A program made the translations under genes and the position numbers. A stretch of DNA of 54,222 nucleotides from Gammaproteobacteria bacterium (lineage in GTDB: Bacteria > Pseudomonadota > Gammaproteobacteria > DSM-16500), in NCBI GenBank assembly GCA_013288395.1, contig JABDBV010000001.1, forward strand, positions 1 through 54,222, read 5' to 3'. Of the stretch, positions 11,635 through 13,068 are shown in pieces. Numbering within the stretch: the stretch's first letter is position 1; every line of letters starts with the position of its first letter. The notes under the pieces are model-generated. The model searched no databases and was not told the origin of the DNA. It was given only the letters and a program-made list of their open reading frames with translations.

Positions 11635-11816
11635 CGTCATTGTGTCGTCGTTGCGTCGTCGTTGCATCGTCGTTGCGTCGTCATTGCGTCGTCGTTGCAT
11701 CGTCATTGCGTCGTCATTGCGTCGTCATTGCGTCGTCATTGCGAGGAGCCCGTAGGGCGACGAAGCAACCCAGCCTCGGTTTCTGGGTTGCTTCGTCGCC
11801 CTACGGGCTCCTCGCA
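11635..11816. repeat. Family A (CGTC-type) palindromic repeat with left 11-bp minisatellite; interrupted by IS110
   Basis: About 9 copies of GTCGTCRTTGC, then GAGGAGCCCGTAGGGCGACGAAGCAACCCAG-loop-CTGGGTTGCTTCGTCGCCCTACGGGCTCCTCGCA. Confidence 0.92.
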
Positions 11817-11852
11817 GCATCTATATCCAAAATCAATAAAAATTTTTTGATT

Positions 11853-12788
11853 TTATCCCATAACTGGCGTCCATGGAGTTTGGCGATGCGCAATGCTGCG
11901 TAATATTTTCAGTAGCTTATGCGCCACTGCAATCAAGGCAACTTTAGATGCTTTGCCTTTATCTTTTAGTTTTTTATAGTACGTCTTGAGCTCTGGGTTA
12001 CAGCGCGCAGCCACTAATGCTGCCATGTATAGCAAGCCCCTTATTCGAGTTCTTCCGCCACGCGTTCGTCTTCGTCCAATCATTTTACCGCTATCACGAT
12101 TCATGGGCGCCAAGCCAACGAGTGCTGCTAACGTTTTATCGTGCTCAATAAGCAGTTCTGGTAGATCAACAATTAACTGCAAACCAGTAATCTTACCGAT
12201 ACCTGGTATAGAGCTGTATAACTGATAAAGCTTTTTAAGACCATCATTTTGGTCTACCTCATTATCAATCGCTTTTTCAATTTGTTCAATTTGCTTAGTC
12301 AGCTGCGCTATGTTTTTTTCGATCCATTTACCAACCAGTTTTTCGCATGTCTCCAAGCGATTTCTCTCTTGCAAACGCATTCCGATTAATTGCTCTCGTC
12401 GCGTTAATAAAGCTTTTAAAGCTTCATATTGCTGTGTTTCAGACTTCGCTTTAATTTCCATGCGTATAGCAAACTCTGCTAGCACCTTGGCATCAATTTT
12501 ATCAGTTTTTGCAGCTATGCCTGCTGCCTTTGCATATGCTCTCACGTGATTAGCATGCACTCTGCGATATGGTAAACCATTATCGTCAAGACATGCTTTA
12601 AGCGTGCGCTCATAACCACCAGTTGGTTCGTATACAATAAGATCAATTTCCTTGAGGGCTGTAGCATGCTTTTTAAGCCATGACTTTAAAGTACGAACTT
12701 CATTATTAACAGTGTGATAATCGCCATTCAAATAAACTACTAATTCATATTTTCCAACGTCAATTCCAACCACAGGACTTTTCATCAT
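11853..12788 (-). CDS. IS110-family DEDD transposase/recombinase
   Basis: GIDVGK, YEPTG and KTDKID (DEDD RuvC-like); SIPGIG; GLAP..RDSG with the catalytic Ser; AAGGAG RBS at 12793-12798. Confidence 0.96.
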   Translation of the reverse strand: MMKSPVVGIDVGKYELVVYLNGDYHTVNNEVRTLKSWLKKHATALKEIDLIVYEPTGGYERTLKACLDDNGLPYRRVHANHVRAYAKAAGIAAKTDKIDAKVLAEFAIRMEIKAKSETQQYEALKALLTRREQLIGMRLQERNRLETCEKLVGKWIEKNIAQLTKQIEQIEKAIDNEVDQNDGLKKLYQLYSSIPGIGKITGLQLIVDLPELLIEHDKTLAALVGLAPMNRDSGKMIGRRRTRGGRTRIRGLLYMAALVAARCNPELKTYYKKLKDKGKASKVALIAVAHKLLKILRSIAHRQTPWTPVMG

Positions 12789-12804
12789 AGTTCTCCTTAA
12801 GTTA

Positions 12805-12985
12805 CACTGTGATCGCTCCTTACTTATGAATTCGGGGCACTATCCCCATACATCTATTCGGAGCAAATCGTAATGTGGATGGGGAACCATGACTGCGAGA
12901 CGAGGCTAGCCCTCAAATGACGAACGGTTCCCCCATCCGCCTTGTTACACTGATCAAGTCTAACAAGGCACCCTAGACAGGTGGA
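12805..12985 (-). ncRNA. Predicted IS110 bridge RNA (5' stem-loop, target-binding loop, donor-binding loop)
   Basis: Stems 12939-12947/12961-12969, 12877-12888/12926-12938 and 12811-12819/12860-12869; loop segments match the target (TCGTCATT, CTCGCA) and donor junction (ATAGATG, ATAAG); ends approximate. Confidence 0.8.
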
Positions 12986-12997
12986 ACCAATATATAA

Positions 12998-13068
12998 ATG
13001 ACGATGCAATGACGACGCAACGACGACGCAATGACGACGCAACGACGATCCAATGACGACGCAATGAC
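12998..13068. repeat. Right 11-bp minisatellite arm of the interrupted family A repeat
   Basis: About 6 copies of AYGACGAYGCA, the reverse complement of the left arm unit. Confidence 0.9.

Follow-up and report, generated by a model that had tools for sequence, protein, structure and literature searches.

The window, by which we mean the entire 54,222-nucleotide stretch of DNA analysed here, contains an intact IS110 element that extends from 12996 to 11816 on the minus strand, with a left end of 208 bases and a short right end. Its recombinase (311 amino acids; 11853..12788, minus strand) matches both PF01548 (N-terminal, DEDD RuvC-like) and PF02371 (C-terminal Tnp, with the catalytic serine) above the cut-off and carries D10, E54, D96, D99 and S233. 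The nearest solved relatives of this protein are IS621 (E = 1.4e-30) and ISCro4 (E = 2.3e-30), and it is approximately 30% identical to IS621. Gly57 aligns with G63 of IS621, the glycine that reads T9, and T9 is present at both junctions; near the core, His78 replaces Asn84 of IS621 and Pro55 aligns with Ala61.

The element adjoins an 882-amino-acid ORF (8899-11547, plus strand) with ankyrin-like repeats as judged by eye; ankyrin-like repeat proteins are common in host-associated Gammaproteobacteria. It interrupts one arm of a REP palindrome found throughout the genome. The remainder of this palindrome occupies 11734..11815 (minus strand), and its other arm (11734-11745, plus strand) is an intact TT site. 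Variable tandem repeats of 9-12 bp, with a unit resembling the left target half, lie on both sides of REP palindromes in the window (11633-11745 and 12997-13068) and in many contigs. One full copy of the element was assembled (the genome is 57% complete); in run X1, the contig corresponding to 11787-13049 had a depth of 29.3 versus 16.2 and 11.8 for its neighbours, perhaps reflecting a second, unassembled copy. Joining the two ends of the element would place a predicted -35 box, TTGATT (11831..11836, minus strand; 4/6), 17 bases from a predicted -10 box, TATATT (12989..12994, minus strand; 5/6), a putative circle-junction promoter that matches 9 of 12 consensus letters and is predicted from that consensus match only.

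Unlike cores at the two junctions

The left junction (13005-12992, minus strand) reads ATCGTCA-TT-TATAT, and the right junction (11824-11811, minus strand) reads ATAGATG-CT-GCGAG. At the left, the left target half (LT, positions 1-7, ATCGTCA; 12999..13005, minus strand) lies in a REP arm flanked by 11-bp tandem repeats and matches the left target guide at positions 2-7; it is followed by the target-derived core TT (positions 8-9; 12997..12998, minus strand) and by the right donor (RD, positions 10-14, TATAT; 12992..12996, minus strand), which begins the left end and shows the split pairing of IS621 with the right donor guide (two bases, two flipped out, five bases). At the right, the left donor (LD, ATAGATG; 11818..11824, minus strand) forms the terminus of the element and matches the left donor guide at 7/7 positions; the core CT (11816..11817, minus strand), probably donor-derived, and the right target half (RT, GCGAG; 11811..11815, minus strand), a 5/5 match to the right target guide, complete the junction. 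T9 is thus the sole core base common to both junctions, as had been claimed in the initial annotation.

The intact target confirms this reading. TT is found in all 29 intact REP arms that share at least 70 of 80 positions with the right flank; a thirtieth row, the right junction of the element itself, was excluded. In the window's own genome, the empty-site 12-mer CGTCA-TT-GCGAG occurs 52 times and CGTCA-CT-GCGAG is absent, and across five related genomes, including that of the window, 131 REP 12-mers have TT versus 2 with CT. The source-run contig across the element is unbroken and lists no alternative letter at either core, in contigs that drop rare variants and from a run that may be the window's own sample.

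A predicted bridge RNA with guides for both cores

A bridge RNA with a 5' stem-loop, a target-binding loop and a donor-binding loop is predicted at approximately 12812..12985 (minus strand; fold z = -4.26). In ten relatives, 12 of its 24 pairs show compensatory change, a number that none of 500 shuffles reached; the structure was hand-written from the window fold and the IS621 plan, which biases the slide control. Four guides are complementary to the target and donor halves and covary with the junctions across relatives. Tested against 5000 base shuffles of the left end, the three guide matches examined never occurred together (0/5000), and singly they occurred 21, 68 and 38 times.

In the target loop, the left target guide UUCGUCAUU (12916..12924, minus strand) ends in UU at the core (12917-12916), the U at 12917 reading target position 8 as T. 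The right target guide is the 7-nt CUCGCAG (12893..12899, minus strand), whose final G (12893; G80 in IS621) would face target T8 before exchange and donor C8 after it; the IS621 register places the handshake guide UC next to it (12891..12892, minus strand). In the donor loop, the left donor guide AUAGAUGU (12850..12857, minus strand) has at position 8 a U (12850) that would form a wobble pair with the G opposite donor C8 on the bottom strand. The right donor guide AU-uc-AUAAG (12823..12831, minus strand) ends in a G (12823; G165 in IS621) that would face donor C8 before exchange and target T8 after it, and the handshake guide in the IS621 register is UA (12821..12822, minus strand). Both right guides therefore end in AG and read CT. 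Two of these core-facing bases, the G at the end of CTCGCAG and the U at the end of ATAGATGT, had been pointed out in the initial annotation and are indeed present; it had missed the final G of the right donor guide and the UU of the left target guide.

The layout of the donor loop is that of IS621: two linker bases, an 8-nt left guide and AU, followed on the right by a paired dinucleotide, two bases that flip out, a paired run of five with G as its last base, and the two-base handshake guide. This correspondence assigns the shared T to position 9 and the differing base to position 8. We rejected a register that places the shared T at position 8, with TG as the target core, because it disrupts the 7-bp match of the right guide and abolishes the invariant T9.

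Recurrence at independent insertions in the lineage

Related elements with 67-90% protein identity were found at L001 and L002 (both in genome G028), L111, L112 and L113, and two more distant elements, L114 and L115, are aimed at the same REP; the flanks differ in all of them. The left core was TT at 13 of 13 left junctions (the window element, a relic on contig C4, L001, L002, L111-L115, L193, two at L194, and L195; those of L115 and the relics were read by eye), and the right core was CT at 6 of 6 readable right junctions (the window element, L001, L002, L112, L113 and L115; L111 and L114 are cut off). A search of the lineage for insertions with identical cores at both junctions, which would have spoken for a change after insertion, thus returned none. 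The tolerance of a first-position core mismatch that the sequence of a single element had suggested recurs at independent insertions and in several lineages. Within this set, L115 is distinguished by an A at the G165 position of its right donor guide, which is a mismatch before exchange and would form a Watson-Crick pair with the incoming target T8 afterwards.

Several partial elements were also observed. On contig C4 of G000 (around 18778, plus strand), a REP arm reading LT-TT continues into about 10 bases from the left end of the element where the first REP bases would otherwise stand, and so preserves the relic of a left junction. L195 (G056) is a mini footprint consisting of the left junction and 45 bases of left end, followed by T and the right target half; L331 and L334, in two genomes, have identical 8 left-end bases after the left junction, again followed by T and the right target half. 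These three footprints resemble the outcome of imprecise excision at an internal T9 site. L194 (G032) comprises two head-to-head left-end fragments, each with a TT left junction, perhaps from two opposite insertions with the middle deleted, and L193 (137-349; G109) has a complete bridge RNA and a TT left junction with no recombinase gene after it. The single CT REP arms in G028 and G032 were considered as excision scars but cannot be called so.

A wider survey of bridge elements

A covariance model built from ten RNAs was run on 177 of 197 loci (leaving aside the G028/G000 duplicates, weak protein hits and three relic loci) and gave 134 hits, in 126 of which all four loops were usable. Only positions 1-7 and 10-14 entered the junction calls, with the core unscored, which yielded 87 left junctions, 98 right junctions and 67 elements with both, the window element included. 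The left/right cores of these 67 were CT/CT in 50 (75%), TT/CT in 12, AT/CT in 2 and AT/AT in 1, with 2 in doubtful register (L127 and L032) and none CT/TT. The 98 right cores included 94 CT and no TT (the calls for L087 and L108 come from G099, and no conclusion depends on them). Clustering at 90% protein identity left 47 clusters (33 CT/CT, 10 TT/CT, 2 AT/CT, 1 AT/AT and 1 mixed), and at 60% identity 4 of the 25 clusters had unlike cores. In a quick tree of 83 proteins, TT requires 8 changes, at least 4 of which are forced by well-supported branches. The presence of unlike cores at the two junctions is real, lineage-wide and repeatedly evolved. Viral relatives were too distant to use, and plasmid relatives had less than 60% identity.

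The left target guide follows the left core. Its position 8 agrees with the left core base in 58 of 63 representatives (31.8 when shuffled, and 0 of 10000 shuffles as high), kin among them not being independent, and the G of both right guides (G80/G165) is kept in every TT/CT and AT/CT call of the survey. Position 8 of the left donor guide varies among the 94 CT right junctions (C in 46, A in 30, T in 17 and G in 1). A U at this position, as in the window element, is found also in CT/CT relatives such as L116 and L003; it is thus not an adaptation to TT, and we rejected it as a sign of a TT donor.

A second lineage aimed at the same REP (L037, from Anaerolinea, with L123, L126, L136, L140 and L151) has a target guide with U8 and a donor guide with C8; it keeps Asn84 and is TT/CT. 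Two of its eight full elements, L135 and L142, and the left end L330 at a contig end have a CT left core, although few REP arms have CT in the three genomes where they were counted (4/44, 1/92 and 12/184, or 1-9%, in genomes chosen for their CT hits). These CT left cores may mean that matched cores are favoured, or that T.G is sometimes repaired to C.G. A pattern scan of 401 Anaerolineae-family genomes gave 10 hits, with L332 as the only full element, and was not used as a count. In a Pseudohongiellaceae lineage with A8 in the target guide, 10 of 251 genomes held 23 pattern-matched left junctions, of which 17 were AT, 4 TT, 2 CT and none GT; its three readable right junctions, one per left type, were all CT. 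L169, L171 and L338 are relatives with AT at the left and CT at the right. The same asymmetry appears in flanks without this REP at L079 (three TT left junctions in one genome), at L118 and in the AT/CT lineage. A full reprogramming of the core also occurs naturally: L109 and L050 have an AT right core with AU in both right guides, and L109 has AT at both junctions.

A non-C left core was found in 10 of 13 elements with His at the Asn84 position versus 7 of 56 with Asn. The His elements nearly form one clade, three of them have CT/CT cores and Asn is retained in the second TT lineage, so His78 was rejected as the cause of unlike cores and its link to a non-C left core is a lead only.

No circle or tandem donor junction of a TT lineage was found in the surveyed loci or in the own genome, and we infer the donor core from the right junctions. 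No circle joint was present in the contigs of four runs, the listed contigs of X2-X4 (related elements) ending at or before the junctions with no core call, and 120 viral pattern hits for the donor junction had no left-end or gene match, indicating chance. In another lineage, a donor-type junction LD-CT-RD lies directly after the gene at L145 (around 2132), either a tandem copy or an insertion in a donor-like site, and its core is CT.

Comparison with known systems

The window element has the features of an IS110 bridge element, namely PF01548 and PF02371 with the catalytic serine, a two-loop left end and four guides. It resembles IS621 of Escherichia coli (PDB 8WT6; PMC11208160, PMC11208158, PMC13626964) in its DEDD and serine recombinase, left-end bridge RNA, two-loop register, CT donor core, G80/G165, REP target and circle promoter (predicted here). 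Unlike IS621, it has a target core (TT) that differs from the donor core (CT), a left target guide ending in UU, a natural 7-bp right target guide, a target left loop that is one base shorter, His for Asn84 and Pro for Ala61. With TT at the left versus CT at the right, TT in the intact targets and no Asn84, the element works like IS621 but is not filed with the matched-core IS621/ISCro4 type. ISCro4/IS622 (PDB 9T56; bioRxiv 10.1101/2025.05.14.653916) shares the protein family and RNA plan but, in the accessible text, is used only on pairs of sites selected for having the same core, CT or GT.

The same REP motif was already on record. In the consulted portion of Supplementary Data 2 of Durrant 2024 (PMC11208160), 16 listed targets contain GTCATTGCGAG; however, the core of all 16 donors is AT and the listed target sequences are centred one base further to the left, giving matched AT/AT pairs, and the donors of both TT/CT lineages were not found in that portion. 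The REP-targeting IS110 elements ISPpu10 and ISPpu9 of Pseudomonas putida likewise tolerate guide wobbles according to the available text (10.64898/2026.03.19.712850; PMC12288879), but there the cores are matched CT (AG) and the wobbles are described outside the core.

A proposed mechanism

The structural account of IS621, as far as its text was available, provides the basis for our proposal (PMC11208158). Top strands are cut at 9|10, after T9, and bottom strands at 9*|10*, which in our reading makes a stagger of four bases spanning positions 6-9. Once the strands are exchanged, the right guides pair with the incoming core and the handshake guides pair with positions 6-7. G63 reads T9, C8 is without protein contact, G80 and G165 bond to A61, and N84 recognizes the G that faces C8. 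Mismatches are presumed to undergo cellular repair. A later account, also available in part, expects an unligated bottom strand in the product and two mismatches beside the core (PMC13626964), and a 7-bp right target guide improved non-CT cores in the IS621 experiments available to us (PMC11208160). Because each incoming core finds its pairing partner in the RNA of the opposite loop, top-strand exchange needs no DNA-DNA pairing between cores.

We consider it likely that the bridge recombinase of the window element connects donors of core CT with targets of core TT and that T9 is the one base the two must share; position 8 would then extend the handshake region, with no homology required there. 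With the cleavage sites transferred from IS621 (about 30% identical), the reaction would proceed as follows. By analogy with IS621, the circle promoter would make the bridge RNA, whose target loop would recognize the REP through U8-U9 at the bottom strand and through the 7-bp right guide, its G wobbling on T8, while the donor loop would read the CT donor. The top strands would then be cut 3' of T9 and swapped, as shown for IS621, and the incoming positions 6-9 would pair with the RNA of the other loop; the target-loop G would gain a G-C pair with donor C8, and the donor-loop G would fall to G.T. Bottom-strand cuts four bases away, again as shown for IS621, would leave a heteroduplex over positions 6-9 in which 6-7 are mismatched anyway, so that the difference at position 8 would extend the mismatch from two bases to three. 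The bottom strand, expected still to be nicked, would finally be repaired from the top strand at positions 6-8, leaving the target core at the left and the donor core at the right.

The observed junctions have this arrangement, with the target TT at the left and a donor-type CT at the right. Their polarity is that predicted by top-strand retention and never the reverse (no CT/TT among the 67 elements), and the asymmetric junctions may accordingly be read as a record of the top strand winning repair. By the IS621 rules, the target-loop handshake of the window element goes from wobble, Watson-Crick and no pair before exchange to Watson-Crick, wobble and no pair after it, which is about neutral, and the donor-loop handshake goes from Watson-Crick, wobble and Watson-Crick to wobble, Watson-Crick and no pair, which is unfavourable. 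With so weak a balance, the mismatch does not obviously drive the window element forward.

The initial annotation had ascribed the tolerance to wobble pairing. This explanation fits the window element, in which G.T and U.G pairs would accept the two cores and G.T would leave neither right-guide G unpaired, but it is incomplete: the A of AT/CT relatives is unable to form a wobble pair with G, and in the right donor guide of L115 an A replaces the G. As the AT/CT lineage and L115 exceed what wobble allows, position 8 likely behaves as an extra handshake position. More tentatively, and with somewhat less than even confidence, we suggest that the two-base core could be divided into T9 and a third programmable handshake position; position-8 guides designed to pair with the incoming strand (compare L115 and the target loop of the AT/CT lineage) might then join any NT target to any NT donor, perhaps with a forward bias, and a residue other than Asn at the Asn84 position might relax the preference for C.

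Among other explanations, a cutting register that differs from that of IS621 survives best. With a true one-base core or a shorter stagger, the bottom strand would never exchange position 8, which would spare the product an extra mismatch; the single common base T9, the identity of about 30% to IS621 and the His78 and Pro55 substitutions for Asn84 and Ala61 near the core are consistent with this, and the junction sequences alone cannot separate it from a four-base stagger. However, we regard it as improbable, since the donor loop reproduces the IS621 register letter for letter, the close relatives L083, L116 and L003, with the same scaffold and His78, are CT/CT, and the Asn84 lineage of L037-L136 is also TT/CT.

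In another reading, with matched cores, the elements inserted solely into rare CT copies of the REP and their left junctions later became TT by gene conversion with other REP copies. CT arms do exist (2 versus 131 in the five genomes), as do the CT/CT insertions L135 and L142 of the second lineage. Against this, the lineage has TT at all 13 left junctions and U8 in the left target guide, and the asymmetry is found where the flanks lack this REP (L079, L118 and the AT/CT lineage), making such a history very unlikely. Even less credible is a circle that carries TT, a matched TT/TT reaction being followed by a later or RNA-templated gain of C at the right junction, for which we know of no mechanism. 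The U at position 8 of both left guides would suit it, but in the donor guide this base varies and is shared with CT/CT elements, both right guides have G, and the second lineage has C8 in its donor guide. Finally, a single point mutation after insertion or an assembly error at one junction, conceivable for a common T/C transition in an element assembled in one copy, is refuted by TT/CT at six insertions with different flanks (the window element, L001, L002, L112, L113 and L115) and in other lineages.

Discussion

Published work on these enzymes has treated the core as a matched pair. In the accessible text of PMC11208160, the IS621 screens strongly preferred core pairing and cores were changed only in concert, the accompanying design code raises a CoreMismatchError when positions 8-9 differ, and 102 of 117 off-targets had CT and 15 did not, so that a rare tolerance of a non-CT core was implied in print. 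Elsewhere, as far as the sources were available, CT:GT cores removed cross-talk and unlike cores serve to keep two reactions apart (bioRxiv 10.64898/2026.04.29.721476), human-genome site pairs were filtered for identical cores (Perry 2025), and a mining pipeline described in a preprint accepts concordant cores only, with cores of about 1-5 nt. Duplication is given as not characteristic of the family in the text available (PMC11187229). We found no description of natural mismatched or unlike cores in the openly searchable literature, as far as its text was accessible.

Enzymes of the type found in the window likely need one shared letter and not two identical ones. The existence of natural lineages that combine a TT or AT target with a CT donor indicates that the matching-core rule is likely not mechanistic for at least some enzymes, and pipelines that require a concordant core would miss or misframe such elements. 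If this is true, the choice of joinable site pairs would be wider, 'orthogonal' cores that differ as C and T may cross-react, and the natural lineages would supply both RNA designs and candidate residues.
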